From assembly GCA_963783905.1 (NCBI GenBank), contig CAWAPG010000007.1, forward strand, positions 5,281 to 69,280: a stretch of DNA of 64,000 nucleotides, written 5' to 3'. Below, piece after piece: positions 37,642 through 61,036 of this stretch. Position 1 is the stretch's first letter. Every line of letters begins with the position of its first letter. The translations under genes and the position numbers were made by a program. Below the pieces are notes generated by a model. The model worked only from the letters and a program-made list of their open reading frames with translations, had not been told where the DNA came from and searched no databases. Source of the stretch: an uncultured delta proteobacterium (lineage in GTDB: Bacteria; Desulfobacterota; Desulfobulbia; Desulfobulbales; BM004).

Positions 37642-37656
37642 GCAATCCATGTGCCA
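37642..37656 (-). promoter_or_regulatory. Sigma-54 (-24/-12) promoter for the cytochrome lipoprotein gene
   Basis: The minus strand reads TGGCAC-ATGGA-TTGCT, a perfect match to TGGCAC-N5-TTGCW. It lies ~150 nt upstream of the lipoprotein start. Confidence 0.75.
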
Positions 37657-43754: not shown

Positions 43755-44885
43755 ATGACAAAACGTATTATTATCATTGTCCTGTTTTTGCTCCTTGTGG
43801 TCGGTGTTATTGCCGGCATCAAATATCTGCAGATACGCACCTTGATCGATCAGGGCGGCGGTGCTGCCCAACCCCCGGCAACGGTCACCAGCGCCGTGGC
43901 GGAAAACCAGAAATGGGAAAAGACCTTCAGGACAGTGGGTTCCCTTGAAGCGGTCCAGGGAGTCATGGTGGCACCAGAACTATCGGGTAAAGTAACAAAA
44001 ATAGCCTTTAACGCAGGGGACATGGTCGAAGCCGGCGACCTGCTGGTGCAGCTGGACATCAATACGGAGAAGGCTCAGCTGCGGGCGGCTGAGGCATCGG
44101 CGTCTCTGGCCCAGATGAATCTGCAGAGGACTTCCGAGGTCCTTGCCGATAACGGGGTCTCCCGCTCCGAATATGACAAGGCCGAAGCCTCCTACAAGGA
44201 AGCCGCGGCCCAGGTCGATACCATAAAGGCCGCCATTGCCAAAAAAACGATCAGGGCGCCGTTTGCCGGGCGCCTCGGCATCCGGCTGGTAAATCTGGGG
44301 CAGATCATCAGCGAAGGCGAATCCATTGTATCCCTGCAGAGCCTTGATCCTCTCTTCGTCAATTTTCAACTGCCGCAGCAGCAGCTGAACCGTGTCAAAG
44401 TAGACTATCCGGTGCGGCTGACCTCCAATGCCGTACCCGACGGAATAATGACCGGCACCATCACCACCATCAGTCCCGAGATTGACAGCGTTACCAGGAA
44501 CTTCCACCTCCAGGCCACGGTGGAGAACAGCCAGGAAGTTCTGCGCCCGGGCATGTTTGTCGAGGCCGCCGTTGTGCTGCCCGATGAGGAGGAAATCCTG
44601 GCCATACCTTCCACGGCCATTCTCTATGCGCCTTACAGCGACTCGGTTTTCGTCATCGAAGAAAGCAAGGCGAAAGAGGGGGAAAAAGCGGGCAAGGTTC
44701 TGCGCCAGCAGTTTGTCCGGCTCGGGGAGAGACGCGGTGATTATGTGGCGGTGACCTCCGGGCTTAAGGAAGGTGAAACCGTGGTCAGCACCGGGGTTTT
44801 TAAATTTCGCAACGGCCAGTCAGCCGTGATCGACAACAGCTTGAACCCTGAATTTAAACTGGAGCCACATCCCGTTAACAAATGA
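43755..44885 (+). CDS. RND efflux periplasmic adaptor (membrane fusion protein)
   Basis: N-terminal TM anchor, coiled-coil hairpin (QLRAAEASASLAQMNLQR...YKEAAAQVDTIKAAIAKKTIRAPFAGRLG). 4-nt overlap with the permease gene. Confidence 0.85.
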   Translation: MTKRIIIIVLFLLLVVGVIAGIKYLQIRTLIDQGGGAAQPPATVTSAVAENQKWEKTFRTVGSLEAVQGVMVAPELSGKVTKIAFNAGDMVEAGDLLVQLDINTEKAQLRAAEASASLAQMNLQRTSEVLADNGVSRSEYDKAEASYKEAAAQVDTIKAAIAKKTIRAPFAGRLGIRLVNLGQIISEGESIVSLQSLDPLFVNFQLPQQQLNRVKVDYPVRLTSNAVPDGIMTGTITTISPEIDSVTRNFHLQATVENSQEVLRPGMFVEAAVVLPDEEEILAIPSTAILYAPYSDSVFVIEESKAKEGEKAGKVLRQQFVRLGERRGDYVAVTSGLKEGETVVSTGVFKFRNGQSAVIDNSLNPEFKLEPHPVNK

Positions 44886-47800
44886 AATTTACCGACCTCT
44901 TCATCCGCCGGCCGGTCCTGGCCATGGTGGTCAGTCTGGTCATCATCATCGCCGGGCTGCAGGCCATCCGCTCCCTCAATGTCCGCCAGTATCCCCGCAG
45001 CGAGAATGCGACGGTGACGGTCACCACCGTCTATGTCGGCGCCAGCGCCGACCTGGTGCGCGGCTTTATCACCACCCCCCTGGAACGGGCCATCGCCGCG
45101 GCCGACGGCATCGACTACATCGAATCGCAGAGCACCCTGGGGCTCTCCACCATCAATGTCCGCCTGAAACTCAACTACGACGCGACCAAGGCCCTGGCCG
45201 AGATCAGCTCCAAGGTGGACCAGGTGCGCAACGATCTGCCGCCGGAGGCCGAGGTGCCGATCATCAACATCGAGTCGGCGGACAGCCGGTTCGCCTCGGC
45301 CTATCTCAGCTTCACCTCCGATATTCTCAAACAGAACGAGATCACCGATTATCTGGTCCGCGTCGTCCAGCCCCGGCTTTCCGCCCTGGCCGGCGTGCAG
45401 CGGGCCGATATCCTCGGGGCCCGCACCTTTGCCATGCGCATCTGGCTCAAACCCGAACGGATGGCCGCCTATCAACATCAGTCCGGTCGCAGGTGCGCCA
45501 GGCCCTGGCCGCCAACAACTTTCTTTCCGCCGTCGGCCAGACCAAGGGGGCGCTGATCCAGGTCAACCTCACCGCCAACACCGACCTGCGTTCGGTGCGG
45601 GAATTCAAGCAGCTGGTCATCCGGGAACAGGACGGCGCCATCGTCCGGCTCGGAGGATATCGCCGAGGTGGTCCTGGGGGCCGAGGATTATAACACCGAG
45701 GTCCATTTTTCCGGTCAGACCGCGGTATTCATGGGTATCTGGCCGCTGCCCAACGCCAACTCCCTGGATGTCATCAGCCGGGTGCGGACCGAGATGGCAT
45801 CCATCCAGAAGGAGCTGCCCACCGGCATGCAGGCCCGGGTCGCCTACGACGCCACCGATTATATCAAGAATGCCATCCACGAGGTGCTCAAGACCCTGGG
45901 CGACACCCTGCTCATCGTCGTGGTCATCATCTTTCTCTTTCTCGGCTCCTTCCGCTCGGTGTTCATCCCGGTGGTGGCCATTCCCATGTCGCTGATCGGC
46001 GCCGTCTTTCTGATGCAGGTCTTCGGCTTCACCATCAACCTGCTGACCCTGCTGGCCATCGTCCTTTCCGTCGGGCTGGTGGTGGATGACGCCATCGTCG
46101 TGGTGGAGAACGTCGAGCGGCATCTGCGGCTCGGCGAATCGCCGCTCGATGCAGCTCTGCTGGGCGCCCGCGAACTGGTCGGTCCGATCATCGCCATGAC
46201 CATCACCCTGGCCGCGGTCTATGCCCCCATCGGGCTGCAGGGCGGGCTCACCGGCTCGCTTTTCCGCGAATTCGCCTTTACCCTGGCCGGCGCCGTGACC
46301 ATTTCCGGGGTGGTGGCCCTGACCCTGTCGCCGATGATGTCCGCCAACCTGCTGAAGCCGGGGCCTGGCGGAACACGGCCTGGCCGGCAGAATCTCCCGG
46401 GATTTCGACCGGTTCAGGGCGAACCTACGGCCGCTGGCTGGATTTCACCCTCCGCACCCGGCCGGCGGTCTACCTGGTCTGGATCGTGCTCAGTCTTGCG
46501 GTCATCCCCATGTTCACCATGTCGGCCAAGGAACTTGCCCCCACCGAGGACCAGGGGGTCATTTTCGGCATCGTCGATGCCGCGGCCAATTCCACCCTCG
46601 ACCAGACCAGCATCTACGCCGCGGCGGCCAACCGCGCCTTTCTCAGCGTGCCGGAGACACAGTTCACCTTCCAGGTCACCTTCCCGTCCTCCGGTTTCGG
46701 CGGCATGGTGGTCAAACCCTGGGACGAGCGGCAGCGCACCATTTTCCAGATCCTGCCCGAGGTGCAGCAGCAAACTGCACGCCATTCCCGGCATCCGGAT
46801 GTTTCCGGTAACCCCGCCGGCCCTGCCGGGCGGCGGCCAGTTTCCGGTGGAATTCGTTCTTGCCTCCACCGCCGATGAGGACCAGATCCTGGACCTGGCC
46901 AAACAGATCCAGCAGAAGGCCATGGACAGCGGCATGTTCGCCTTCCCGCCGATCATCGACGTCAAGATCGACCAGCCCCAGGCCGAGATTGATATCGACC
47001 GGGACAAGGTGGCCGATCTCGGACCTCAACCTGGAGCAGGTCGGGGGCGATCTCGGTTCCATGCTGGGCGGCAATTACGTCAACCGCTTCAACATTGCCG
47101 GCCGCAGCTACAAGGTTATCCCCCAGATCCAGCGGGTTGACCGGCTCAACCCGGATCAGCTGAAGGATATCTATGTCACCGGCCCGGCCGGTCAGCTGGT
47201 GCCGCTCAGCACCGTGGCCACCCTGCACAGAACCACCGTGCCCCGCTCGCTGAACCGCTTCCAGCAGCTCAATGCCGTCAAGATCAGCGGCGTGGCGATC
47301 CGCCCCCTGGACGAGGCCCTGCGATTTCTGGAGGACGAGGCCGCCAAGATCCTGCCCAAGGGCTATGTCATCGACTATACCGGCGAATCGCGCCAGCTGC
47401 GCAGCGAAGGCAACACGTTCCTGCCGACCTTCGCCCTGGCGGTTGTCCTGATCTTTCTGGTGCTGGCCGCCCAGTTCAACAGCTTCCGCGACCCCTTCGT
47501 CATCCTGGCCGGCTCGGTGCCGCTGGCCATGTTCGGCGCCCTGATCTTCACCTTCCTGAAGATGCCGGACCCCAATATTCCCTTCTGGACCCACGGGCTG
47601 GACCACCACCCTCAACATCTACTCCCAGGTCGGGCTGGTGACCCTGGTCGGGCTGGTCTCGAAAAACGGCATCCTGATCGTCGAGTTCGCCAACAAGCTG
47701 CAGGAAAGGGGCAAATCCAAGCTCGAGGCGGTCCGGGAGGCGGCCATGAACACGGCTGCGACCGATCCTGATGACCAGCGCCGCCACCATTGCCGGCCAT

Positions 47801-47989
47801 TTTCCCCTGACCCTGGTCACCGGCGCCGGCGCCGCGGCCAGAAATTCCATCGGTCTGGTGCTGGTCGGGGGTATGGCCATCGGCACCTTCTTCACCCTGT
47901 TCGTGGTGCCGTCGATCTATATGCTGGTGGCCCGGGAGCATACCGCCGATTCCTCCCCGGAAGGATCAGCCGCTGCTCAGGATTCTTGA
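44882..47989 (+). pseudogene. RND (AcrB/MdtB-like) efflux permease broken into about 10 in-frame segments by frame changes
   Basis: Canonical N-terminus MKFTDLFIRRPVLAMVVSLVIIIAG and C-terminus PILMTSAATIAGHFPL...VVPSIYML. Colinear RND sequence can be followed only by hopping frames near 45470, 45490, 45651, 46368, 46428, 46775, 47022, 47596 and 47752. Confidence 0.8.
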
Positions 47990-48054
47990 GAAAAAGCGGT
48001 AATAACCACCCTCTCTCCAACACCGGAACATCAGAACATTGGCAGACCGCATTA

Positions 48055-49140
48055 CTACAGTTCAAGCTCCCTTTTTCCGGCCTCTGCATAGATCCGGATC
48101 GTTTTAGGAACAAATAAGTTGTTTTCAGGTTTGTTGGAGTCATAATCGACATTTATGCCGCCGATATAAAAAGATCGACTGCCGCTTTCCAGGAGAAGCG
48201 AATCAAATATATCGGCCCCCAGTCCAAGAAGCTTTTCAGCGGCGACGGCCATGGGATGGGCACCGGCAGCTATCTCGTCAAGATAGGGGGCAAGGGCCCT
48301 TTCCGTTTCCCTCATTTCAAAATCCTTGAAGTCCGGCGGTTTCCTGCCGTTGCCCCGTTCACCATGCCTTTTCAGGATCGCCGCCACCAGGCCGCAGGAA
48401 GAACTGGGCTGCCGCATGCCGTATCTGTCCGTCAGGCCCAGGGTATATTGCGAGTCGCAGCCGACATGGGTGGCGTGGAATACTACGGTCCAGGGGTTGC
48501 CGCGCAGTTCGGGAACGTGATGGGAGGGCGGCCCCAGGCTTTCAATACCCCGCCCCGCCGGGTATGCCCCGAATGCATTGAGGTCAAACCAGCCGCAGCT
48601 TCTGCCGCACCCCATAAGCAGGAACCCCAGTTGGTCCTGATTGTCGTCCCGGCAAAAACATTTTATTCCCAGGGCATTCTCGCCAAGGCGTATACCTTCA
48701 TTGTCAAGATGCTTCTTTAATATCGGGACAAACTCTCCGTATGAATAAAGAAAATCACGATTTTTCTTTACCGCAAAGGCCGACCTGATCTTTTCCATCA
48801 GACTGTTTATATCCGTCGGCTTGCCGAGAAAATCAACCGCACCCAGCCGGGCGGCTTCGTTTATGGTGGATTCGGTGCCGTAACCGCTGAGGACAATGGT
48901 CTGAATATCGGGATAGTTTTTTTTGACCTGCCGCAAGACCTCCATGCCGTCCATCCCCGGCATCTTGAGGTCAAGAATCATGACATCCGGTGCATTTTTC
49001 TCTATAAGCTCCAGGGCCTTTTTGCCGCCAAACGCAGTCTCGGCGGCGACACCCCGGGAGTCAAGCCGTTCGGATAATGCCCGGGCAAAGGTTTCTTCAT
49101 CATCAACCAGCAGCACCTTAATTTTTCTGTTGTCCGCCAT
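48055..49140 (-). CDS. Response regulator: canonical receiver domain fused to a ~240-aa Cys/His-rich domain of unknown function
   Basis: Receiver: VLLVDDE...ILDLKMPGMDG...VLSGYG...FLGKP. C-terminal part: IKCFCRDD, GCGRSCGWF, FHATHVGCDS, SSSCGLVAAILKRH. Start set at MADNRKIK (49140). Confidence 0.75.
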   Translation of the reverse strand: MADNRKIKVLLVDDEETFARALSERLDSRGVAAETAFGGKKALELIEKNAPDVMILDLKMPGMDGMEVLRQVKKNYPDIQTIVLSGYGTESTINEAARLGAVDFLGKPTDINSLMEKIRSAFAVKKNRDFLYSYGEFVPILKKHLDNEGIRLGENALGIKCFCRDDNQDQLGFLLMGCGRSCGWFDLNAFGAYPAGRGIESLGPPSHHVPELRGNPWTVVFHATHVGCDSQYTLGLTDRYGMRQPSSSCGLVAAILKRHGERGNGRKPPDFKDFEMRETERALAPYLDEIAAGAHPMAVAAEKLLGLGADIFDSLLLESGSRSFYIGGINVDYDSNKPENNLFVPKTIRIYAEAGKRELEL

Positions 49141-49202
49141 GCCGATCTCCCGCATCCTGCGACACCTGTTTCATGCCGGTGCAATTACTCTGTCATCATC
49201 CT

Positions 49203-50693
49203 TCAGGACACCGGAATATATACCTGCATCCCCATTATAGGCCAGATAAACTGTACAGCCAGCCAGGTGACCACCATGAGCAGAATGCTGGCCGGAATGC
49301 CGTAGAAAAAGAATTCACCCGGGGTGAACTGTTTTGAGGTATAGGCAATGGCATTGGGCGCCGCACCCACCAGGAGCAGAAAGGGCATACCGGCCACAAT
49401 CAGGGCTGAAAATACGATTACCTCGCCGGCCACCCCGAGATACGGCGCTATGACCAGGGCCACCGGCAGGGAGATGGCGATGGCCGCCACGTTCATGATG
49501 AAATTCGTCATAATCATAACGAAAAATGCCATACCGAGGATGAAGACGATGGCCGGAGCGTTCTTGAACATGGTGAGCCAGTTGATGGCCATCCACTTGG
49601 CCGCTCCGGTTTCCCACAGACAGAAACCGATGGACATGGCGCCGGCAAAAAGCAGAATAATATTCCATGGCATTTCTTCCAGGTCGTCAATATCGAGAAT
49701 GTTGACCGCAAAGAACAGAATGGTTGAACAGAGAAGAATCCCTGTTTTGTGAAGGTTTGTCATGGCGGGAATAAACGATTTGCCGGAAATGACGATGATT
49801 GTCGCGATAACTATGATTATTGCCAGAATCTCCTTGCCCGACCAGGCTCCAAGTTCCCGGTACATTCTTTTGGCCTTTTCCTTGAGCCCGGGGATGGACA
49901 CCTTTTCAGGTCTGCAGGTAAACATGAAAAATCCCCAGAGAAGAAAAGTCATGCCCCAGCCGATGGGCGCCATATAGTAAGAAAGCTCGAAAAAGCTTAT
50001 ATCAGTGCCGGTAATATCCTTGTAAAATCCGAGGGCCACGGCGCCGCGGGCCGCACCGAGCAGGGTTATGATGCTGCCGGCGCCTGCAACATAGGCCATG
50101 CCGATAAAAAGTCCCTTGCCGAATTTTGTCGGTCCTGTCTGGTCCGTATACATTGAATAAATGGCCATCAGCAGTGGAAACATGGTGGCCGCAACCGCCG
50201 TATGGGCCATTATATGGGTCAGGGCGGTCGTAAGCACGAAACTGCCCAGGTAAATCATGCTCGTTTTTTCACCAACAATGGAGAGCATTTTATAGGCGAT
50301 TCTTTTCGTCAGCCCGGTCTTGGTGAAAACCATGCCGATCACAATGGAGCCGAAAATAAAAAGAACCGATGGATCCATGAAATCCGTGAAGGCAACCTTG
50401 GCAGGCCGGATGAAAAATAAGGCCTGCAGGGTACCGATTGTCAAACTGGTTACCCCGATGGGCACAACCTCAAATACCCACCATATTGCGGCGATAAGAA
50501 AAACGGCAATGGCCCCTTTTCCTTCTTTGGTGAGAATAAACTGCTCCCCAAGGGGATCGACCGCAGCAGGCCACATGGGTGAATAATAGACCCCCAGAAA
50601 CGTGATCACGCCTGCCAGTAAAAAGAATATTCTTTTCCAATTAATGGGCCTTCTTTCCGTTGCCAACCTTACTTCCGGATTTGCATTAGACAT
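49203..50693 (-). CDS. SLC13/DASS-family anion permease (ArsB/NhaD superfamily)
   Basis: 496 aa polytopic protein with the two-fold DASS layout. Confidence 0.7.
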   Translation of the reverse strand: MSNANPEVRLATERRPINWKRIFFLLAGVITFLGVYYSPMWPAAVDPLGEQFILTKEGKGAIAVFLIAAIWWVFEVVPIGVTSLTIGTLQALFFIRPAKVAFTDFMDPSVLFIFGSIVIGMVFTKTGLTKRIAYKMLSIVGEKTSMIYLGSFVLTTALTHIMAHTAVAATMFPLLMAIYSMYTDQTGPTKFGKGLFIGMAYVAGAGSIITLLGAARGAVALGFYKDITGTDISFFELSYYMAPIGWGMTFLLWGFFMFTCRPEKVSIPGLKEKAKRMYRELGAWSGKEILAIIIVIATIIVISGKSFIPAMTNLHKTGILLCSTILFFAVNILDIDDLEEMPWNIILLFAGAMSIGFCLWETGAAKWMAINWLTMFKNAPAIVFILGMAFFVMIMTNFIMNVAAIAISLPVALVIAPYLGVAGEVIVFSALIVAGMPFLLLVGAAPNAIAYTSKQFTPGEFFFYGIPASILLMVVTWLAVQFIWPIMGMQVYIPVS

Positions 50694-50738
50694 AGTCCCT
50701 AATCCTCATCTTTTTTTGACAGCATTTTTCTCGCCAAA

Positions 50739-51263
50739 TTACAGATTGCACTTTTCACAGACGGCCTTGAAAATTTCCTTCAGGCGGATAACCCCGATAA
50801 CGCGATCCTCATCCGTAACAGGCAAAACCGTATCTTTTGTATTTATCATAATGAGCAGTGCCATTAGGACAGGATCGCTTCCTTTGAGGCTATGCTTTAT
50901 CGGTGACATGAAGTCACGAATGAGTATGTTCGTCCTCTTTTTGCACTCCATGAAAAATGATTCTTCCCAGATATACGTCAGATCAGGGAATTCAGATTTT
51001 TTCCCGGCAAATTTTTTAACCATGGATCCATCCTGCAATCGTGGGTTCAGGCTCTGCAGTATATTCTGCAGGGTGGCATGTCCTATGAGCTGATTCCGGT
51101 CATTTAAAACCAGAAGTTCTGCATATGTGATACGGTCATCTTCAACAGAGGTATAGGATGTAATCACCGCAACAGCTTCGTGGAGGGTATTGTTTTCCTT
51201 GAGATGCGGATACTTGTCGAGTGGTATAACCAGGTCTCTTACAACCGGATTGTCGGAACCCAT
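50739..51263 (-). CDS. CBS-pair domain protein
   Basis: 174 aa, two CBS-like repeats (LHEAVAVIT...LLVLNDRNQLIGHATLQNIL and VLMALLIMINTKDTVLPVTDEDRVIGVIRLKEIF). Confidence 0.7.
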   Translation of the reverse strand: MGSDNPVVRDLVIPLDKYPHLKENNTLHEAVAVITSYTSVEDDRITYAELLVLNDRNQLIGHATLQNILQSLNPRLQDGSMVKKFAGKKSEFPDLTYIWEESFFMECKKRTNILIRDFMSPIKHSLKGSDPVLMALLIMINTKDTVLPVTDEDRVIGVIRLKEIFKAVCEKCNL

Positions 51264-51432
51264 TTTTTTCTCCTTGTAATTTTGTTGATACTGATACCCT
51301 GGGAGCGCCCGATTTATTCTTGCCTGGGGACGGAATATAGATACATTTCTCCTGTTCCGGGCAGATGTCTCTGCCAGCCCGGCCTTGATTTGCGAGGCTT
51401 TCCGGCACGAAAGGCTCTATTGTATGGTTAGG

Positions 51433-51873
51433 TTACCATGTTTTACTTTTAATGATTTTCCTGACTTCTTCCTGCCGCCCTTTTTCCACCACGAGCATTC
51501 TTTTATGTTTGGCCTCGCCGATCTTTTCGAGCAATTCGTTCAGATCGACCGGTTTTTCCAGAAAATCCTCCGCCCCCAGCTTCATTGCCTCGATGCCGCT
51601 TTTTACTGTTGCATGACCGGTCAACATGATGATCTCCAGGTCCGGACGTTTTTCCTTGATTCGTCTCAGGGTTTCAATGCCATCGATACCGGGCATGGCA
51701 AGATCAACGACTATCGCGTCAAAATTCTGGTCCTCGACCTGCTTTAACGCGTCTTCTCCGCTTGTCACGGCATCGACCTTGAGCCCTCTGGTTTTCAACC
51801 GCTGTGAAAGCGCATCCAGAAACTGTTCCTCGTCATCGACCAGCAGTACATTTGCTTCTAATTTTTCCGTCAT
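51433..51873 (-). CDS. Single-domain response regulator (CheY-like)
   Basis: VLLVDDE, VVDLAMPGIDG, MLTGH, LEKP: all canonical receiver residues. Confidence 0.85.
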   Translation of the reverse strand: MTEKLEANVLLVDDEEQFLDALSQRLKTRGLKVDAVTSGEDALKQVEDQNFDAIVVDLAMPGIDGIETLRRIKEKRPDLEIIMLTGHATVKSGIEAMKLGAEDFLEKPVDLNELLEKIGEAKHKRMLVVEKGRQEEVRKIIKSKTW

Positions 51874-51896
51874 CTCAGCACCTGATATTTTAATTC

Positions 51897-52349
51897 TTAT
51901 TTTTTTCTTTCCTTGAGATATTCGCGCGCACTCCCATACTCACCTGCTTCCGCAAAGGCTGCCGCAGCCATGGTATCCTCAATTTTATCCCGGTATGCCG
52001 CCTTGATGCGATTCACCAGGACCTCGATGTCGACCGGCTTTTTCAGGTAGTCAAAAACCCCGATACGCCTTGATTCCTCTTCATCCCTATCCGTTCCGTG
52101 CCCCGTTAAGATGATAACCCGGATTTTGGGGAATTTCCTGGTTACCTGCCGGAGGACCTCCATGCCGTCAATTCCAGGCATTTTCAAATCAAGAACCATC
52201 ACATCCGGCTCCTTGTCATCCACAAAGCTCAGTGCCTGTTCGCCATTATAGACGGTCTCGTTCTCAAGATCACGCATTTGCAAACGTTCGGATAATGTTT
52301 CGACAAATTTCTGCTCGTCATCAACTAGAAGTACTTTCATTTCTTTCAT
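51897..52349 (-). CDS. Single-domain response regulator with conserved C-terminal AAFAEAGEY tail
   Basis: Start set at MKEMKVLLVDDE (ATG 52349, AGGAGAA RBS). LDLKMPGIDG, ILTGH, LKKP. Tail: DTMAAAAFAEAGEYGSAREYLKERKK. Confidence 0.85.
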   Translation of the reverse strand: MKEMKVLLVDDEQKFVETLSERLQMRDLENETVYNGEQALSFVDDKEPDVMVLDLKMPGIDGMEVLRQVTRKFPKIRVIILTGHGTDRDEEESRRIGVFDYLKKPVDIEVLVNRIKAAYRDKIEDTMAAAAFAEAGEYGSAREYLKERKK

Positions 52350-52380
52350 GGCATTCTCCTTTTCGTCCCGGCATATATTC

Positions 52381-52893
52381 TCAGCCATTGTTTCTTTTAT
52401 TGCTGCCTTCCCGGTGAATTTTTTGCGCCGTCTCATATTCTCCTGCCTCGGCAAAGGCCGCTGCCACCATTGTATCTTCAAAAACATTCAGCAGTGCCGG
52501 TTTGCGGCAAGCTCGCACGCGGGCTTTTCTCCTTTGTAAAGCGCTTTTTATTTTTTTTCGCAGCGAGTCGATTTCAAAAGGAACGGTTATGTCATCATAT
52601 GCCCCCTGCCGCATGCCCTCCATGGCAAGAGAAATATTTGCAGGATCACTTAAGAGAATCACCTCGGTTTCCGGCTGATTTAACTTCAGACGGGCAAGAA
52701 CCTGCATGGCATCATGTCCTTGGTGCCTTATATCCAAAAGAGCCAGGTCAACTTCATGTTTTGTGCACATCTCCAATGCCTCATTCTTACCGACCGCGGT
52801 TATGACTGAAGCCTTCAGACGCTTGAGGGTCTCGGATAAATTCTGCAGGAAAAAAGAATCTTCCGCAACAAGTAGAACTGTCGAATGCATCAC
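52381..52893 (-). CDS. Atypical receiver-domain protein (conserved Lys replaced) with the same C-terminal AAFAEAGEY tail
   Basis: LLVAEDS, LLDIRHQGHD, ILLSD, and ITVPF where K-P is expected. Tail: DTMVAAAFAEAGEYETAQKI. Confidence 0.75.
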   Translation of the reverse strand: MMHSTVLLVAEDSFFLQNLSETLKRLKASVITAVGKNEALEMCTKHEVDLALLDIRHQGHDAMQVLARLKLNQPETEVILLSDPANISLAMEGMRQGAYDDITVPFEIDSLRKKIKSALQRRKARVRACRKPALLNVFEDTMVAAAFAEAGEYETAQKIHREGSNKRNNG

Positions 52894-52964
52894 ATCACCT
52901 TAACAGTTAATTTCTTTACCACGCCTGCACCCCATGGTTTGCCTGAAAGACACCGCAGAAGAAC

Positions 52965-53255
52965 TTAAATCAAAACGGTGCCATATATCACCTGGACACC
53001 TTTCAGGCCGAGACTTTCACACATAGCGGCATTAAAATCATTTCCGCTGCTCCGCGCCGGTTCCATAAGTTCGACCGCCTCTTTATGAAGACCTGATTCT
53101 GCAAAGGCAGCCGCCATGAAAACTCTATTCAACCAGCTTAACTCACGGGACAACTTGATTTCAGGAAGCATTTCTCTGGCAGTGTCCCATTCACCGGCCT
53201 CGGCATAAGTTGCCGCCATCATATTCTTCAGGAATGCTTGGAATATATTTTTCAT
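52965..53255 (-). CDS. Small (96 aa) protein carrying two copies of the AxxAEAGE tail motif. First gene behind the sigma-54 promoter.
   Basis: AGGAGG RBS immediately upstream of the ATG at 53255. MMAATYAEAGEWDTAREML and FMAAAFAESGLHKEAVELM. The track ORF start (53333) falls inside the -24/-12 promoter and is rejected. Confidence 0.65.
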   Translation of the reverse strand: MKNIFQAFLKNMMAATYAEAGEWDTAREMLPEIKLSRELSWLNRVFMAAAFAESGLHKEAVELMEPARSSGNDFNAAMCESLGLKGVQVIYGTVLI

Positions 53256-53327
53256 TGTGGACCTCCTTGGTTTAGCACCGGTTACACTGCTTTCAGGTTC
53301 GTTTTGATATTTATATAGCAAGGCCTG

Positions 53328-53342
53328 TGCCATTTTTATATT
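53328..53342 (-). promoter_or_regulatory. Sigma-54 (-24/-12) promoter
   Basis: The minus strand reads TGGCAC-AGGCC-TTGCT, a perfect consensus, ~73 nt upstream of the ATG at 53255. Confidence 0.8.
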
Positions 53343-53360
53343 TTTAATAATATCAATATA

Positions 53361-53373
53361 TTATAGATTCAGC
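53361..53373. promoter_or_regulatory. Candidate IHF site just upstream of the sigma-54 promoter
   Basis: TATCAATATATTA matches WATCAANNNNTTR within an AT-rich tract. Confidence 0.3.
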
Positions 53374-53615
53374 ATGAAATGAAACATTTATTCGCATAAA
53401 CCAAAACGATACAAAACAGAACGATAATTTTGGGCCATGGTGCTTAAGTAAAAATACTTTTTTCTTTTATTTCAGAATGTTAAAGAGAAAAAAGGACTAA
53501 AATGGTGGCAGGATGCTAAAGTGTCTCATATTGAAACGTATTGACACACATTGCCGCTCCGATTCTGGCGCCCCAAGGAAAAGCGCTGAATGCCGGATTA
53601 CACCGCGGTGCAGCG

Positions 53616-54296
53616 TTATGCAATTTCAATGGAGGATACTAAGATGGCAAACACCTGGTTTCCCCCGGGCAGGATTCTTTGAGAATGTTCAGCCCTCAGC
53701 TTCTGCAGAATGTCGGGAAGAACCTCTCGCCATTCATTGTCCACCGGCGATTTCTTCATTTCCCCCACAAAATTAACTACAACCTCAACTGCTGCCCCCT
53801 GCCGGGAGATCTCAACCAGGATTCGTCCTTCCTTATCCAGTGAAGCCAAAGCCGGCCAGACGATGCAAAAAAGCGCAAATTGCAGCAGGGCGGGATCGTT
53901 GAAAATTACCGGTGCATCATCACCAAATACAGCGTCCAGATTCACCTGTTTCTGCCAGGCAAATCGGCGCAGAAGGTATATTGCCTCCTGCAAAACTTCA
54001 GTTACGCTGAATGAAGAAAGGGGTTGGTCCATACGGTGGGCGAAGCCACTGAGAAAACGGCACATTTCCGCTGCCTGAGCAATACGCTGATTGACTCCGG
54101 CAATATTTTCCTGCAGTCGCTCCCTCTTGATCGGCTTCTCCGGTTCTTCCAGCAAAATCAGGTCTTCAATCAGGCCGTTTAATTCTTTGATAATCGCCAG
54201 ATGGTTTTTAAACTCATGGGAAAGCCCCGCCATCAATTTACCGACAAAGGCTAACTGCATCTCTCTGAGATGGCCCTGTTGCTGCGATTGCATCAC
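53616..54296 (-). CDS. Soluble HisKA-containing protein with a degenerate or absent ATP-binding domain
   Basis: H-box LMAGLSHEFKNHLAII. In the C-terminal ~110 aa I cannot find N, G1 (DxGxG) or G2 (GxGxG) boxes. No TM segments. 4-nt overlap with the upstream receiver gene. Confidence 0.65.
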   Translation of the reverse strand: MMQSQQQGHLREMQLAFVGKLMAGLSHEFKNHLAIIKELNGLIEDLILLEEPEKPIKRERLQENIAGVNQRIAQAAEMCRFLSGFAHRMDQPLSSFSVTEVLQEAIYLLRRFAWQKQVNLDAVFGDDAPVIFNDPALLQFALFCIVWPALASLDKEGRILVEISRQGAAVEVVVNFVGEMKKSPVDNEWREVLPDILQKLRAEHSQRILPGGNQVFAILVSSIEIA

Positions 54297-54697
54297 TCTT
54301 CTCCTCTCTTTTGGGAAGCCTGCCGTTTTGCCATGGCCTGATTGATCTTGGCGGTAAGCTCTATAATATCCGCCGGCTTCATCATGCAGTCAAAAGCACC
54401 ATGCTTTTCACTGCCGATCCCGGATAACGGCACCCCTGCTCCATGCCCGGTTAACATGATTACCTCAATATCAGGATTATATTTTTTTATTTCCCTGAGT
54501 GTTTCCATGCCATCCATGCGCGGCATTTTTAAATCGAGCAGAACAACGTCAGGAATGTTTTTGGCATGGATACGGGCGAGTGCATCCTCGGTACAGTAGA
54601 CAGCCGCCGTTTCAAAGCCTCTGATGCTCAACCGTTCCGCCAGAGTTGAGGCAAAATCCTTCTCATCGTCAACTATCAGAACCTTTATTTTCGCCAT
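54293..54697 (-). CDS. Single-domain response regulator
   Basis: VLIVDDE, LLDLKMPRMDG, MLTGH, MMKP. Confidence 0.85.
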   Translation of the reverse strand: MAKIKVLIVDDEKDFASTLAERLSIRGFETAAVYCTEDALARIHAKNIPDVVLLDLKMPRMDGMETLREIKKYNPDIEVIMLTGHGAGVPLSGIGSEKHGAFDCMMKPADIIELTAKINQAMAKRQASQKRGEE

Positions 54698-56438
54698 CTC
54701 GATCCCTCCGCCTCATTTTCATTATTTTAATCGGCAGGCTTACGGTAAAAGTAGTGCCTTCCCCCGCGCTGCTGCGCACGGAGATTTGTCCACCGAGCTT
54801 TTTAACCAGGCCGTAAGTAATGAACAGCCCGAGCCCGGTGCCTCTTTTCTCGCCGCTGTCTTTTGTGGTAAAAAACGGTTCAAAAATATGGCTTCTGATT
54901 TCCCGGGGTATGCCCTTGCCAGTATCAACTATATCAACTTCCATTGTATCTTGATCCTGCAACTTGGTCGTAACGGTAATCACCCCGTCTTTTTCAATGG
55001 CCTCAATCGCGTTATTGAGAAGATTAAGAAATATCTGCTGCAGCTGGCCACGGTCACTTTCTATGACAGGCAGGGACTCACCGAAGTTCAAATCAATGTG
55101 AATACCCCGATAAAGGGCTTCCTTGTCGAGAAAACTCAACACTTCACGCATGAGGCTGTTGATATCTATGGGTTCCAGCGTAACATCCATGCGGCGGGCA
55201 AAACCCAGGAGCCGGTGGGTGATGACCTTGCAGCGTTCCACCGCCTCGGATGCACCATTAATTTCCGAAGATATTTTATCCTTGTATTTAAAATCTTCAG
55301 AAATTTCGAGCAGATCCATGATCAACCCGGTTTTTGTACTGATAATCGCCAGAGGGTTGTTAATTTCATGGGCCACTCCGGCGGCGAGACGCCCTATGGA
55401 CGCCAACTTGCTTGTATGTTCAATTTCTACCAGCATGGATTCCCGCTTTTCGTCTGCTTCACGAATTCGGCCGACAATATGTCTGGTGATCTGCAGAATA
55501 ACAAGTATTGCGAATACGGTGCTGATCGAAACAATAAAAAGCAGTTGGGCCTTGAAAAAAGACCACTCTCGCCCATAGAGATAGCCCTGCTTTAATAAAA
55601 CAAGCGCCCACGGGGTCCCTTCGAGATGCGAGACGGCCTTTAATACATCATCGTTCCTTAAACCTGATTCTTCAGAAACCGTGACGCCGATACGGTTTCC
55701 GGGAAGATCAGCCGGATATGGGCTCAGCGGAGGGCCGTAATACCGTGATGAAGACTGCAGCAGATGCTCTCCATTCCTGCTGACCAGAAAGATATCGGAC
55801 AAGGCGGCCGTGTCGGTTTTTTCGATATATTTATCAAGGGTCGCAGCATCGATACTGGTCCGGAACACCCAGTTCCGTCCTGTATCAGGGGTGATGCCGC
55901 TGACCGCAATACAAAAATGAGGCACCTTGCGATACCCCATCTCGACCTTGCCGATGAATGTTTTGTTCGCTGTAACGAGCCTAAAACATTCGCGGTTACT
56001 GTAGTCTTTGCCTTTAAGCTCGTAAGGGCCCGCGTATGCTCTCTGAATTCCTTTATCATCGATAATACCCAGATCAACCACGCCGGGATAATTTGACTTG
56101 AGCCGGTGATACAGCTTATTCAGGTTGTCCTGGTCGGTCAACTCTTCAAAAGTTTGACCGCTGGCTGTATAAACAAGTACCGTCTGGAGTTCCGACAAAA
56201 AAGTTTCAATGGTTCTTTTCGCACTTTCTGCGTTCCAGCGCAAATTAGCCAGTACCAAGGCACGATACTCGTAGTAGCTCAACCAGGTGATCATAAGCAG
56301 GGGGATCAAGAAGGTTGCAGTCATTACGAGAAACAGGGTCCGGCGCAAACGTCTGTATCGCCGTGGTGATTTTGCAATTTTATAATTTTCGGCAACATCA
56401 CGGAAAACCCTTTTTAGCCATCCCGAATCTTTTTTCAT
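54669..56438 (-). CDS. Membrane sensor histidine kinase with a periplasmic Cache-like domain
   Basis: Two TM segments bracket a ~250-aa extracytoplasmic domain. H-box AAGVAHEINNPL. N box LLNNAIEA. G1 DTGKGI. G2 GTGLGL. Confidence 0.85.
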   Translation of the reverse strand: MKKDSGWLKRVFRDVAENYKIAKSPRRYRRLRRTLFLVMTATFLIPLLMITWLSYYEYRALVLANLRWNAESAKRTIETFLSELQTVLVYTASGQTFEELTDQDNLNKLYHRLKSNYPGVVDLGIIDDKGIQRAYAGPYELKGKDYSNRECFRLVTANKTFIGKVEMGYRKVPHFCIAVSGITPDTGRNWVFRTSIDAATLDKYIEKTDTAALSDIFLVSRNGEHLLQSSSRYYGPPLSPYPADLPGNRIGVTVSEESGLRNDDVLKAVSHLEGTPWALVLLKQGYLYGREWSFFKAQLLFIVSISTVFAILVILQITRHIVGRIREADEKRESMLVEIEHTSKLASIGRLAAGVAHEINNPLAIISTKTGLIMDLLEISEDFKYKDKISSEINGASEAVERCKVITHRLLGFARRMDVTLEPIDINSLMREVLSFLDKEALYRGIHIDLNFGESLPVIESDRGQLQQIFLNLLNNAIEAIEKDGVITVTTKLQDQDTMEVDIVDTGKGIPREIRSHIFEPFFTTKDSGEKRGTGLGLFITYGLVKKLGGQISVRSSAGEGTTFTVSLPIKIMKMRRRDRDGENKGSDS

Positions 56439-56788
56439 GACTGTCCCCCGGGTTTACTGGCGCCGGGCAGAATTATTCCCGGCTTAAGAGTATTTGCAGA
56501 AACAAAATCCAAAGCCCGCTGATAAGGACCGATGATCCCGTCAACAACCTTTATTTTTTTCCATGTAAGATACTGGTGATAAGTCTCTTCGATACCACCG
56601 CAAATGACGAGGGAAACGTTTTCCTTGATAGCCAGGCTGCAAATATCTTCGCCAGAAATATTCGGGAGCAGGACAACTCTCGGCGCACCCATATTATTTT
56701 CGTCGTCCATCTCAATTACGAGAATTTCCGCAGTCTGATCGAATCGGGGAGCAACTTCGTTTTTTTGTATTGCTATTAATATCTTCAT
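56435..56788 (-). CDS. NifB/NifX-family (dinitrogenase FeMo-cofactor-binding domain) small protein
   Basis: MKILIAIQKNEVAPRFDQTAEILVIE...VICGGI pattern typical of the family. 4-nt overlap with the kinase gene. Confidence 0.6.
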   Translation of the reverse strand: MKILIAIQKNEVAPRFDQTAEILVIEMDDENNMGAPRVVLLPNISGEDICSLAIKENVSLVICGGIEETYHQYLTWKKIKVVDGIIGPYQRALDFVSANTLKPGIILPGASKPGGQS

Positions 56789-56845
56789 ACCCCTCCTACT
56801 TGCCCTTACAAGTCAAATGAATCAATTGCAGAAAAGTCAAACATA

Positions 56846-58288
56846 TCAACCCAGGCCGTGGCGTTTTATTTTTCTCCATAACTTGCTGCGTGACCAGCCA
56901 AGGAGTTCGGCCGCTCTGGAGCGGTTTCCTCCTGTTTTAGTCAAGGCATTCAGTATCATGCCTTTTTCCATCTCCCCCCACCCTCCGTGTGAGGGTACGG
57001 TAAAGGTAGTTGTCAGGGCGGGAGAATCCGACGAGGTCTCCGCATTTCCCAGGGACGCTGACCCGACACGGGATGAAGACGAAGATGAGATCCGTGTTTC
57101 TGTAAGCATGGTTTTGGGCAAATGCTCCGGCCCAACGGTTTCTTCCGAACAAACATTAACCGCATACTCGACAATATTTCTCAATTCTCTGATATTTCCC
57201 GGATAGCGGTATGCGGCTAAAACCTCAAGACATGCCGGGCTGAACCCCTTGGTTGTTTTGTTCAGGTTGCCTCTGATCTCTCTGAAATAATGATCGAGAA
57301 GGAGCCGGAAATCATCTTCCCGTTCCCGCAGCGGCGGCAGATGGAGACGGAGGACATTGAGCCGGTAATACAGGTCTTCGCGGAAATTGCCCAGCTTGAC
57401 AAGTTCTCCCAAATCCCGATGGGTGGCTGCTATAATGCGCACATCAACGCTGACTTTTTTTGATCCTCCGACAGGAAAGAACTCTTTATCATCCAGAACG
57501 GTGAGTATTTTCACCTGGAGCGGCAATGACAAATCCCCGATTTCCGTGAGGAACAGCGTGCCCCCATGGGCCAGGCGAAACATGCCGGGCTTATCCTTAT
57601 CAGCTCCGGTAAAGGCCCCCCGGACATGGCCGAACAGCTCCGATTCCAGGAGGGATTCCGGTAGAGCGCCGCAGTTGACTTTAATAAAGGGATAGCGTGC
57701 TCTTTTTGATGCTTTATGGATGGCCTCGGCAACCAGATCCTTGCCGGTGCCGGTCTCGCCGGTTATCAGCACCGAGGCATCCGTTCTTGCCGTTATGGGA
57801 AGCAGTTCAAAAATTTCCTGCATTTTCCGGCTCTGCCCTATAATCTTCTCCGGCCCGGAAAAACCGTGGATTTTATCATCAAGATCTTTAAGCAGGGAAA
57901 TATCTTCCAGGATGACCATAACCCCAACCTTTTCGCCGGTCGTGAGCTTTAAAGGGGATATGGTGAAGCGGATAGGCACTTTTTTGCGGCCCTGATTGAT
58001 AATATCCCCTTCAAGGGTCATTGTCTCGTCAGATTCTAGGGCCTTGCCCACGGGGTCACCCTTGTTTATCAGGTTGCTGCGGATGATATTTTCGCCATAA
58101 ACACCGGCAACCGCCTCGCGGTTGTAACCGGTCAAAGCCTCGAGAAAATGGTTGATTGTAATGATCCTACGGGCCTGATCCATAAAAAGCACCCCCATTG
58201 TCATGGAGTCCAGGAAAGCCATAAAATCGAGTTTACTCATCAGAGAAGATTCGGGCCGGAAGGACGTCCCCCTTTTTTTCTTCGACAT
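56846..58288 (-). CDS. Sigma-54-dependent transcriptional activator (PAS sensor, AAA+, Fis-type HTH). No receiver domain.
   Basis: PAS-like N-terminus. Walker A GETGTGKD. GAFTGA loop. ESELFGH. C-terminal HTH NRSRAAELLGWSRSKLWRKIKRHGL. Confidence 0.9.
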   Translation of the reverse strand: MSKKKRGTSFRPESSLMSKLDFMAFLDSMTMGVLFMDQARRIITINHFLEALTGYNREAVAGVYGENIIRSNLINKGDPVGKALESDETMTLEGDIINQGRKKVPIRFTISPLKLTTGEKVGVMVILEDISLLKDLDDKIHGFSGPEKIIGQSRKMQEIFELLPITARTDASVLITGETGTGKDLVAEAIHKASKRARYPFIKVNCGALPESLLESELFGHVRGAFTGADKDKPGMFRLAHGGTLFLTEIGDLSLPLQVKILTVLDDKEFFPVGGSKKVSVDVRIIAATHRDLGELVKLGNFREDLYYRLNVLRLHLPPLREREDDFRLLLDHYFREIRGNLNKTTKGFSPACLEVLAAYRYPGNIRELRNIVEYAVNVCSEETVGPEHLPKTMLTETRISSSSSSRVGSASLGNAETSSDSPALTTTFTVPSHGGWGEMEKGMILNALTKTGGNRSRAAELLGWSRSKLWRKIKRHGLG

Positions 58289-59468: not shown

Positions 59469-60017
59469 ATGCATAAAATTCTTTTATCTCTCTTCATCCT
59501 GGCGCTTCCGCTAGTGTTTAGCGGTTGTGCCGCTAAAAACAGCAAAGGCATGAAACCTCTCGAAACCGTTAACTTTGTTGATCTGGACCGTTATGGGGGC
59601 CGATGGTATGAAATTGCCAGATACCCCAACAGATTCCAGAAAGGATGCGTCGGCAGCAGGGCGACCTATACCCGGCGTGACGACGGCGGCATAGCCGTGG
59701 TCAACCAATGTTATGACAGGTCATTTGCCGGCAAGCTGCGCACGGCTGAAGGAAAGGCATGGGTCGTGGATAAAGAGACAAATGCCAGGCTGAAGGTTTC
59801 TTTCTTCTGGCCCTTTGCCGGCGATTACTGGATAATCGATCTTGGCAGAGATTATGAATATGCTGTGGTCGGACATCCCGACAGAAAATACCTCTGGATT
59901 CTGGCCCGCACACCTGTAATGGATGAAAAAGAGTATCAATCCATCCTGAAACGCCTGCAAATGCAGGGATATGACACGACAAAACTTATCAGAACAGAAC
60001 AGCAAAGCGGAGATTAA
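59469..60017 (+). CDS. blc: Bacterial lipocalin (outer-membrane lipoprotein Blc)
   Basis: Lipobox VFSGCA. FDLDRYGGRWYEIARYPNRFQKGC lipocalin signature. Confidence 0.85.
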   Translation: MHKILLSLFILALPLVFSGCAAKNSKGMKPLETVNFVDLDRYGGRWYEIARYPNRFQKGCVGSRATYTRRDDGGIAVVNQCYDRSFAGKLRTAEGKAWVVDKETNARLKVSFFWPFAGDYWIIDLGRDYEYAVVGHPDRKYLWILARTPVMDEKEYQSILKRLQMQGYDTTKLIRTEQQSGD

Positions 60018-60459: not shown

Positions 60460-61036
60460 AAACAACCACCTACTTGAAGTAGGTGGGTTTAACAGCGCGG
60501 ACTTAAAGTCCAGCAATACCGGCAGGCTCACGCAGCCGGTTTAAGGCTCAACCTCAAATCCATCATTGGGATCACGTTCAAAATGATGAGCGAGATATTC
60601 CTTTATCATTACCTTGGTAAGTTCACCGGCTGTTACGCAAAAGTAGCCTCGTGCCCAAAAATGACGGCCCCAATAACGCTTCTTTACATGAGGAAACTCT
60701 TCAAATATCTTCCGAGATGTTCGCCCTTTCACCCTTTTCATTATGTCAGATGGAGACATATTCGGCGGGGCAGAAACCAAGATATGAACATGATCTTTAC
60801 TTACAACACCTCGCAATATCTGAATTTCAAAATACTCACAGGTTTGACGAACAAGATCACGAACTCGATCTGCCAAGTCGCCTTGAAGCATATGATAACG
60901 ATATTTGGTTACCCATACAAAATGATATTCTATTTTGTACTTGGTGTGACTACTCTGTCGGTATTCCATGCCAGAAAGTATAATTCAACAGCTAGCTTAA
61001 AGCTACCCGCCTAAAAGGCGGGGGTTTAAACCTTTA
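60460..61036 (-). mobile_element. IS200/IS605-family insertion sequence (tnpA only) with subterminal hairpins
   Basis: Single Y1 transposase gene flanked by hairpins CCACCTAC-ttgaa-GTAGGTGG (60466-60486) and CCCGCC-taaaa-GGCGGG (61006-61022). Each hairpin is followed by G(G)TTTAA. The exact ends were not determined. Confidence 0.7.
60541..60969 (-). CDS. tnpA: IS200/IS605-family Y1 (HUH) transposase TnpA
   Basis: YHFVWVTKYR, HUH motif DHVHILVS, catalytic Tyr context FWARGYF. Confidence 0.9.
   Translation of the reverse strand: MEYRQSSHTKYKIEYHFVWVTKYRYHMLQGDLADRVRDLVRQTCEYFEIQILRGVVSKDHVHILVSAPPNMSPSDIMKRVKGRTSRKIFEEFPHVKKRYWGRHFWARGYFCVTAGELTKVMIKEYLAHHFERDPNDGFEVEP

Follow-up and report, generated by a model that had tools for sequence, protein, structure and literature searches.

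A locus of 12 consecutive minus-strand genes lies in the 64-kb window analyzed here (the whole stretch of contig CAWAPG010000007.1, 64,000 nucleotides, from an uncultured member of the Desulfobulbales). It is arranged in two blocks, in which a predicted σ54-dependent signaling system is joined to a CBS protein, a permease of the DASS/SLC13 fold, and a receiver fused to a carbonic-anhydrase-type (LCIB-type) domain. Open reading frames (ORFs) were listed and translated across the window, and domains were called with Pfam and NCBIfam profiles. Block 1 consists of a sigma-54 enhancer-binding protein (EBP; 480 aa, 56846–58288; Pfam PAS, Sigma54_activat, and HTH_8), a NifX-like Nitro_FeMo-Co protein (117 aa, 56435–56788; PF02579), a membrane histidine kinase (589 aa, 54669–56438; dCache_1, HisKA, and HATPase_c), the single-domain receiver REC1 (134 aa, 54293–54697), and HPtL (226 aa, 53616–54296), for which Pfam gave a weak HisKA match only. 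Successive genes of this block are separated by +57, −4, −29, and −4 nt. Block 2 runs from p96 (96 aa, 52965–53255), which is preceded by an AAGGAGG ribosome-binding site, through the atypical or pseudo-receiver REC2t (52381–52893) and the receivers REC3t (51897–52349) and REC4 (51433–51873), all three assigned by Pfam and alignments, to a stand-alone CBS protein (174 aa, 50739–51263), the permease (496 aa, 49203–50693; Pfam Na_sulph_symp/CitMHS), and REC-LCIB (48055–49140), a receiver with a C-terminal LCIB-type domain.

A preliminary description of this DNA had portrayed a sigma-54-wired, receiver-rich signaling locus driving a CBS/DASS/receiver-fusion operon, and the present analysis supports that picture. 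The minus-strand ORFs lie where the description had put them, its gaps and overlaps in block 1 are exact, and the domain calls agree that there is no DNA-binding response regulator and that the EBP has no receiver. Its totals need correction: it announced 13 genes and six receiver domains, whereas 12 and five are present, the sums to which its own list also adds. A candidate for a thirteenth gene was sought and dropped, as no conserved ORF was found; an 86-aa ORF at 47892–48152 has no Pfam match.

Homologs of REC-LCIB and p96 were used to reach long contigs, on which gene order was compared. The full 12-gene order is shared by the window, L001 (a 913-kb ENA contig), L002/L010, L009/L013–L015, and L011, with protein identities to the window that range from 32% (HPtL) to 91% (REC4); in L016/L017 it is kept as far as the contig end. 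The co-conservation on which the preliminary description's reading of a single unit depended is therefore observed. The block is colinear in at least five diverged Desulfobulbales lineages, with unrelated flanks (CopD, PntB, MscS, and others), and constitutes a self-contained regulatory-plus-cargo unit of the Desulfobulbales. A scan of 185,579 species genomes returned seven related loci, five of which are Desulfobulbales by name or synteny (one being labeled “Pseudomonadota”); the other two, on short contigs labeled Acidobacteriota and Leptospira, are suspected to be misbinned. Among 5.8 billion proteins, the LCIB clade accounts for about 54 clusters, while only 29 homolog clusters were found for p96, the taxon-named ones belonging to Desulfobulbaceae or Thermodesulfobacteriota.

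Within the unit, some associations are closer than others. EBP orthologs head the block in L001, L002, L003, L009, L011, L013, and L016, and the coupling of the NifX-like and kinase genes is kept in L001, L002, and L003. HPtL is always encoded together with the kinase and REC1 in the loci compared. The LCIB gene adjoins the DASS gene in nearly all loci, and REC-LCIB stands directly beside the kinase-REC1-HPtL genes in L003, L012, and L019. A CitMHS permease gene follows the block in L002, L013–L015, and L019.

The variant loci show how the unit can be rearranged or taken apart. L019/L020 hold every component in one sigma-54 operon, in a changed order and with a small Fis-like HTH_8 protein and the CitMHS permease added. 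L003/L004 place REC-LCIB ahead of EBP-NifX-kinase-REC1-HPtL-REC3t-REC4 and have no p96, REC2t, CBS, or DASS gene. In L005/L007, block 1 is swapped for a classical kinase and a REC-AAA+ activator and the LCIB protein has no receiver; L005, in which a Mrp Na+/H+ antiporter follows, is the one locus without HPtL. Finally, in L018, DASS, an unfused LCIB protein, and CitMHS occur alone on a 6.4-kb contig, the LCIB gene lying between the two permease genes and no signaling genes being present there. As to the gene order of L019 (1–19293) and also L020, it reads p96, REC2t, HTH_8 (103 aa), REC-LCIB, kinase, REC1, HPtL, REC3t, REC4, CBS, DASS, CitMHS. L019 carries in addition a divergent second EBP-NifX-kinase-REC copy, in which kinase and receiver are in fragments and which appears to be decaying.

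Block 2 is preceded by the sigma-54 promoter TGGCACAGGCCTTGCT (53317–53332, −), an exact TGGCAC-N5-TTGCT element that ends 61 nt before the p96 ATG and whose first base is 77 nt before it. The element itself had been recognized in the preliminary description; the position given there, 53328–53342, is about 10 nt off. The window contains two exact TGGCAC-N5-TTGC sites against 0.16 expected, a number reached in 3 of 100 shuffles. Conservation of the −24/−12 element upstream of p96 is seen in the orthologous loci. TGGCAY-N5-TTGC is kept at the same place in nine other upstream regions, those of L001, L002, L005, L006 (twice), L009, L011, L016, and L019. In all loci examined, its distance to the start of p96 is 61–130 nt, the version of L003 being weaker. 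The other exact site of the window (37642–37656, −) precedes two cytochrome c genes (36165–37622 and the multihaem 34903–36186) by 20 nt and is probably a second sigma-54 promoter.

Two enhancer-like sites are found on the same strand farther upstream. The proximal one (53395–53418, −) consists of tandem GTTTY repeats with a 10-nt period, 75–85 nt upstream of the −24 element, and the distal one (53521–53547, −) is the imperfect palindrome GTGTCAATACGTTTCAATATGAGACAC, about 205 nt upstream of it. TGTTTC is the only hexamer common to all 10 upstream regions. It recurs in tandem with a 10-nt period 75–104 nt before the −24 element in eight of them (in L003 and L016, GTTTY occurs there as a single copy), and a second TGTTTC site is located about 180–230 nt upstream of the −24 element; the L001 equivalent of the distal site is the perfect palindrome CTGTTTCAA-N11-TTGAAACAG. 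To judge from their placement, the repeats are at the positions expected of enhancer sites.

The EBP, a candidate reader of these sites, has a PAS domain (aa 32–131), an AAA+ domain (149–315) with Walker A GETGTGK (57740–57760) and GAFTGA (57602–57619), and HTH_8 (439–476), with no receiver detected by Pfam. Receiver-less PAS EBPs occur in sulfate reducers, an example being OrpR (DVU2106) of Desulfovibrio vulgaris (PMC8359166). The resemblance to OrpR and the orp operons extends to the neighborhood: there, too, a receiver-less PAS-AAA+-HTH activator is encoded beside orange-protein/Nitro_FeMo-Co genes, and sigma-54 promoters are used (PMC8359166). In OrpR, a 4Fe-4S cluster bound by three cysteines of the PAS domain serves in redox sensing, and the DNA site is GGGCGYRTTTTGCGCCC (PMC8359166). 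Redox sensing of this Fe-S type was considered for the window's EBP and rejected, as its PAS region (residues 1–145) contains no Cys and the TGTTTC repeats are unlike GGGCGYRTTTTGCGCCC.

No convincing terminator was found between blocks 1 and 2 (fold z-score −0.57), and the scans of the window for terminators (16 sites vs. 14.1 expected) and for sigma-70 promoters (20 vs. 13.7 ± 4.1 expected) were both at chance, so that the latter assigned no promoter to block 1. A search of the leader and spacers for known RNAs and riboswitches gave zero Rfam matches at E ≤ 0.1. A weak hairpin with a T-run, GGTGGTTATTACCGCTTTTT (47991–48010, −), which was read from the sequence and is not listed by the terminator scan, lies 45 nt past the last stop codon of the REC-LCIB gene and is a possible transcript end.

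The signaling genes of block 1 begin with the NifX-like protein, which scores 27 bits against PF02579 (cut-off 26.3) and has an NCBIfam match to the MrpORP C-terminal domain; the stop of its gene overlaps the kinase start by 4 nt. The kinase is intact. A transmembrane segment, the periplasmic dCache_1 domain, and a second transmembrane segment are followed by a DHp domain with the H-box AHEINNPL (55350–55373) and by an ATPase domain with an N box, G1 (DTGKGI), and G2 (GTGLGL). REC1 is a canonical receiver (DD, Asp55, Thr, Lys), and its gene shares 29 nt with the kinase gene and 4 nt with the HPtL gene.

HPtL is a paralog of the kinase core, and its DHp domain resembles that of the adjacent kinase. 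Its H-box, SHEFKNHL (54198–54221), contains His27 and is invariant as SHE(F/L)KNHL in the orthologs. In all of these, the ATPase-like domain is without the N-box Asn, G1, and G2, and Pfam does not report HATPase_c. NCBIfam profiles for AtoS (3e-12), ZraS, and CckA match over aa 10–178 (about 170 residues), and HPtL aligns with the PDB structures of ZraS (9jfj) and CckA (5idj). A DHp domain followed by an ATPase-like domain devoid of ATP boxes is the make-up of ChpT and Spo0B. HPtL is accordingly described here as a putative His-phosphotransferase of the ChpT/Spo0B kind or a phosphatase.

Since HPtL keeps the H-box His and has lost the ATP boxes, the series kinase, receiver, His-protein, receivers follows the plan of an ordinary phosphorelay. 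The preliminary description had found this architecture unrecognizable; it is in fact the plan of Spo0 (KinA-Spo0F-Spo0B-Spo0A) and of CckA-ChpT-CtrA/CpdR, both of which comprise a kinase, an intermediate receiver, a DHp protein without ATP boxes, and more than one terminal receiver, single-domain ones included. The differences are also clear. REC1 is a separate protein, like Spo0F, while CckA is a hybrid kinase. In contrast to the known relays, the one proposed here is predicted from sequence and has no DNA-binding terminal regulator; its terminal outputs would be a carbonic-anhydrase-like enzyme, two receivers whose tails are TPR-like, and one receiver extended by a helical segment.

An alternative for this step is that HPtL serves as a dedicated receiver phosphatase, or as a NifL-like regulator that acts on the receiver-less activator by protein-protein contact. 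HPtL retains H-E-x-x-N and is always encoded with the kinase and REC1, and an activator without a receiver needs some protein-protein input. The gene order, in which kinase, receiver, and DHp-only protein are followed by paralogous receivers, is nevertheless that of a relay, and the invariant His does not discriminate, being needed in either role. We regard this alternative as possible but would lean against it.

Four of the five receivers are canonical. These four are 45–50% identical to each other and have a common helix-1 pattern (DDE..F...LS.RL), which makes them compatible with a shared phosphodonor. REC3t (Asp54; orthologs of 148–153 aa) likely starts at 52349, since a longer ORF from 52487 would overlap REC2t. 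REC4 (Asp57) is the best conserved, with 72–91% identity among orthologs, and has a conserved helical C-terminal extension ending in KSK(S/T)W (51436–51510). The fifth, REC2t, is the receiver that the preliminary description had rightly singled out as atypical: it retains Asp54, another residue takes the place of the conserved Lys (TVPF), and the acidic pair is not constant in the orthologs.

REC2t and REC3t are related to p96 by a shared motif, M-A-A-x-(F/Y)-A-E-(A/S)-G-(E/L)-x-x-x-A, which occurs twice in p96 (AATYAEAGEWDTA at 53178–53216 and AAAFAESGLHKEA at 53076–53114) and once in each receiver tail (AAAFAEAGEYETA at 52426–52464 in REC2t; AAAFAEAGEYGSA at 51927–51965 in REC3t). A motif scan found no copy elsewhere in the window. 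The motif fits TPR positions 8–20, and the Pfam profiles TPR_4, TPR_14, and TPR_12 match p96 and the receiver tails with E values of 0.001–0.006, all under their cut-offs. The AlphaFold2 (AF2) model of p96 consists of two helical hairpins, with a predicted local distance difference test score (pLDDT) of 64, which is too low to justify a fold search. The C-terminus of p96 is conserved as LGLxGV..YGTV. In L006, a second, inverted copy (7547–9277, −) comprises a sigma-54 promoter with GTTTC repeats followed by p96, REC2t-like, and REC3t-like genes, and its last gene encodes a stand-alone Fis-like HTH_8 protein of 109 aa; the HTH of this protein shares 54% identity with the HTH of the window's activator. 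In L006 and L019, p96 and the tails recur together with Fis-like HTH proteins, which may point to a transcriptional role. The p96/tail motif defines a small, sharply delimited family that travels with sigma-54 promoters and Fis-like HTH proteins.

Three features of the locus are out of the ordinary, namely the receiver-LCIB fusion, the altered SNT motifs of the DASS permease, and the TPR-like motif common to p96 and two receiver tails. REC-LCIB combines a canonical receiver (about 48784–49116; Asp57) with a C-terminal domain (about 48058–48759) that the preliminary description had called an unknown Cys/His-rich output domain. This domain matches the Pfam family LCIB_C_CA of β/θ carbonic anhydrases (PF18599) at 51 bits (cut-off 25; E 1.5e-13). 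Its motifs are CFCRDDNQD (48634–48660), SHHVP (48511–48525), HATHVGCD (48454–48477), and SSCGL (48388–48402). The Cys-x-Asp, His-x-Gly, and Cys-Gly motifs, and apparently His-His-x-Pro and Arg as well, are common, like the Pfam family, to REC-LCIB and LCIB/LCIC of Chlamydomonas, PtLCIB4 of Phaeodactylum, and the structures 5k5w, 5b5x, 5b5y, 6kfs, and 9w05. Matches to PDB entries comprise 9w05, 9vzj, 6kfs, PtLCIB4 (5b5y/5b60), and CrLCIB (5k5w), at 1.4e-5 with phmmer and 3e-9 with the clade profile. In the alignments with PtLCIB4 and 9w05, C163-R-D165 corresponds to C46-S47-D48 of PtLCIB4, H225 to the His of HVG, and C249 to the Cys of CCG; the first of these motifs reads LC(S/R)DE in the structures, and the predicted Cys/His/Cys zinc ligands and the Asp of Cys-x-Asp are thus all present. 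H208 and R239, putative counterparts of the second-shell residues His162 and Arg194 of CrLCIB, are 31 residues apart, against 32 for that pair (PMC5876011). C163, D165, H208, H225, R239, and C249 are invariant down to relatives 22–30% identical.

The LCIB clade is isolated and nearly always fused to a receiver. Its nearest metagenomic relatives outside the clade are only 22–30% identical, and a hidden Markov model search of 1.84 billion representatives returned two clusters below 1e-30, the next at 5.5e-29, and 168 in total below 1e-3. Algal LCIB has been proposed to hydrate CO2 and so to trap inorganic carbon as bicarbonate, a role in which it would act next to inorganic-carbon transporters (PMC10096703); REC-LCIB is likewise encoded beside a carrier gene. 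It differs from algal LCIB in its isolated clade, in the fusion to a receiver, and in its host, which is bacterial and, as the family consists of sulfate reducers, presumably anaerobic.

The permease encoded next to REC-LCIB matches Pfam PF00939 (E 3.4e-38), scores 176.8 against TIGR00785, below the cut-off of 198.6, and aligns over its full length with VcINDY (1.6e-19) and human NaDC3. It thus shares with VcINDY and the SLC13 symporters full-length homology and a PPNAI-type motif. It departs from them in both SNT motifs, which are replaced by AHT (50187–50210) and MNV (49476–49499), each invariant in all permease orthologs. In DASS proteins, the SNT motifs bind two substrate carboxylates and form the Na1 and Na2 sites (PMC7553777). 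By residue-level alignment, then, the permease lacks the pair of SNT motifs that marks canonical DASS symporters. In L009 (7878–9583) and L015 (10728–12445), the DASS gene appears to be split or frameshifted (two tblastn segments; gene calls of 448 and 144 aa), probably as a result of assembly error or recent pseudogene formation; it is intact in the near-identical L013 and L014.

A further departure from the SLC13 symporters is the stand-alone CBS partner. The CBS gene is directly upstream of the permease gene in every locus that has the latter and no contig break there. Pfam reports one CBS domain, and a weak NCBIfam match to CbpB over aa 9–72 suggests a second, so that the protein is probably a CBS pair. 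The spacer between REC4 and CBS is long in every locus (135–215 nt; 51264–51432, −, in the window). One segment of it, CCCGGAACAGGAGA, is conserved in part, and the spacer of the window also includes a CCGGGC...GCCCGG hairpin. No Rfam family matches the spacer, which could be an internal control element.

These features can be joined in a single model. The activator would bind the TGTTTC sites, open the sigma-54 promoter, and turn on block 2. The dCache kinase would sense a periplasmic ligand, and phosphate would pass through REC1 to His27 of HPtL and from there to the paralogous terminal receivers REC3t, REC4, and REC-LCIB. Phosphorylation may shift the dimer geometry of REC-LCIB and so gate an active site at the subunit interface; REC-LCIB and the CBS-gated permease would then act jointly in the uptake or conversion of an anion, for which inorganic carbon (CO2/HCO3−) is the likeliest candidate. 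The p96 protein and the receiver tails may form an adaptor or feedback complex acting on transcription. The relay is read from the intact kinase, the gene overlaps, the combination in HPtL of a conserved His with missing ATP boxes, the similarity of the receivers, and the joint absence from L005 of HPtL and of the receiver part of the LCIB protein. Inorganic carbon is favored because LCIB-type proteins are CO2-hydrating or CO2-trapping parts of algal carbon-concentrating mechanisms (PMC10096703), because the LCIB protein stays beside DASS and CitMHS where no signaling genes are visible (L018), and because the carrier has lost the carboxylate and Na+ motifs.

In our opinion, the architectural part of this model by itself, i.e., a sigma-54 operon, a phosphorelay, and a carbonic-anhydrase-type output, is quite likely to be right. 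The full model, from the sigma-54 switch through the relay and the gated carbonic anhydrase to the handling of inorganic carbon or another anion, is tentative and falls a little short of an even call. A more ambitious version would make the locus a regulated inorganic-carbon acquisition module, with the first phosphorylation-switched carbonic anhydrase and the first DASS-fold carrier linked to bicarbonate or CO2, the carrier being CBS-gated, control being exerted by a sigma-54 switch together with a ChpT-like relay, and p96, REC2t, and REC3t providing a new kind of TPR-like tail adaptor with feedback on transcription; in that complete form, we consider it somewhat unlikely.

Several observations weigh against the full model. 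Where transcription is concerned, the TGTTTC sites are kept in L005 (5437–5895), whose REC-AAA+ activator (4045–5436) has a different recognition helix, ISRKSLYDKINRHGI; the assignment of the repeats to the activator is therefore tentative. The PAS activator, for its part, has no receiver through which the relay could act on it. H-E-x-x-N is the HisKA motif tied to phosphatase activity, and HPtL, which keeps it, could drain the receivers instead of feeding them. To our knowledge, there is no DASS-family bicarbonate transporter. In addition, L003 has REC-LCIB and the relay with no CBS or DASS gene within 21 kb, so that the enzyme is not strictly tied to the permease.

The remaining points concern REC-LCIB itself. 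The AF2 model has a pLDDT of 77 overall and below 50 at residues 188–209 and 229–249, i.e., at the putative zinc site, and a Foldseek search of the full-length model against the PDB gave receiver matches only, a result that is uninformative on the C-terminal domain. The LCIB-type fold is thus supported by the sequence matches and not by the AF2 model. The residue that follows the zinc Cys is Arg, and PDB 5b60 is the S47R form of PtLCIB4, with Arg at this position. Moreover, Chlamydomonas LCIB and LCIC have no measurable carbonic anhydrase activity in vitro (PMC5876011; PMC10096703). A widened cleft between the subunits, which leaves a His and an Arg disordered, has been put forward as the cause of this inactivity (PMC5876011), an explanation that makes control through dimer geometry plausible.

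One alternative to the full model is a Dct-like organic-anion system, in which the dCache kinase would sense a di- or tricarboxylate, the sigma-54 activator would induce a DASS carboxylate permease, and the carbonic anhydrase would supply or remove bicarbonate for carboxylation or decarboxylation. A periplasmic double-Cache kinase, a sigma-54 activator with upstream repeats, and an anion carrier as cargo recall DctB/DctD-dctA, the permease resembles VcINDY and NaDC3 throughout, and CitMHS permeases neighbor several loci. Set against this likeness is the invariant replacement of both motifs that bind carboxylates and Na+ (PMC7553777). The activator carries PAS where DctD, by definition, has its receiver, a relay and four additional receivers intervene, the carrier is of the DASS fold and not DctA, and both a phospho-gated carbonic anhydrase and the DASS-LCIB-CitMHS trio of L018 would be left unexplained. 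Such a system is, in our view, unlikely. Membership in the classical DctBD family was rejected, as the activator has no Response_reg domain; the L005 variant does have a kinase and REC-AAA+ pair.

It is also conceivable that the LCIB domain is a sensor. Binding of CO2/HCO3−, or else of a metal or sulfur ligand, to its zinc site would then modulate phosphate flow in the relay, with REC-LCIB serving, e.g., as a regulated phosphate sink, and the locus would be a signaling device that responds to CO2/bicarbonate. The linkage of REC-LCIB to kinase-REC1-HPtL, which it adjoins in L003, L012, and L019, is tighter than its linkage to the permease, L003 being without any CBS or DASS gene, and the Chlamydomonas proteins are catalytically silent in vitro (PMC5876011). 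Yet the invariance of the Cys, Asp, His, and Cys, together with the additional His and Arg, suggests selection for chemistry, and an LCIB protein without a receiver is found beside the permease in L018, where no relay is visible, and in L005. A sensor role is quite unlikely. The weakest proposal, derived from the preliminary description's guess of sulfate or dicarboxylate uptake, is import of a sulfur oxyanion (sulfate, thiosulfate, or sulfite) with a β-carbonic-anhydrase-fold domain that acts on COS or CS2 or merely binds zinc. In sulfate reducers, candidates for sulfate carriers include DASS members (PMC5840216). The hosts belong to the Desulfobulbales, and some enzymes of the β-carbonic-anhydrase fold hydrolyze COS or CS2. 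However, neither sat, apr, and dsr nor any other sulfur gene is present within or next to the block at any locus, the SNT motifs are absent, and nothing specific ties LCIB proteins to sulfur chemistry. Neither guess has specific support, and import of a sulfur oxyanion is very unlikely.

If we return to the relay-gated carbonic anhydrase model, its overall plan combines known kinds of system, namely a PAS sigma-54 regulon like that of OrpR and a ChpT/Spo0B-type relay, and is for this reason not categorically new. Response regulators with enzymatic outputs are known (CheB, PleD, RssB, PorX), in which a receiver is joined to a catalytic domain as in REC-LCIB, whose gating is predicted; fusions between genes for SulP anion transporters and carbonic anhydrases exist as well. 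The latter similarly couple a carbonic anhydrase genetically to an anion carrier, which is DASS and not SulP in the present case. A literature search of incomplete coverage found nothing relevant on receiver-carbonic anhydrase fusions, bacterial LCIB, or the S47R mutant. Three elements appear, within the same coverage, to be undescribed: the fusion of a receiver to LCIB, the DASS clade with AHT and MNV together with its CBS partner, and the family defined by p96 and the tails. Should REC-LCIB prove active, carbonic anhydrase would join the short list of enzymatic response-regulator outputs, and a natural means of switching an LCIB-type enzyme on and off would be at hand, activity being disputed for the algal enzymes. 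A permease without the canonical substrate and Na+ motifs and with an LCIB partner is a candidate representative of a new anion-carrier class, whose substrate could be bicarbonate, in hosts from a lineage important in sediment sulfur and carbon cycling. Conversely, should REC-LCIB lack activity and the permease transport a common carboxylate, the locus would be an elaborate Dct-like regulon.

The surroundings of the locus contain several features of note. An AcrB-type RND pump gene (44882–48117, +), preceded by a gene for an HlyD-type fusion protein (43755–44885, +), converges on the end of the locus. It is broken into at least four ORFs, which cover profile positions 2–197, 263–493, 731–910, and 923–960, and the G+C content of the region is 64%, compared with about 51% across the window. 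The breaks are due either to a series of sequencing errors or to the gene being a pseudogene, decayed or of foreign origin. A 1423-aa protein with two BadF/BcrA-type ATPase modules and DUF2229 (CoA-enzyme-activase type) is encoded at 38410–42681 (+), between the cytochrome genes and the RND cluster. On the other side, an IS200-type Y1 transposase (60541–60969, −) is encoded about 2.3 kb upstream of the locus, with a lipocalin gene (59469–60017, +) between the two.

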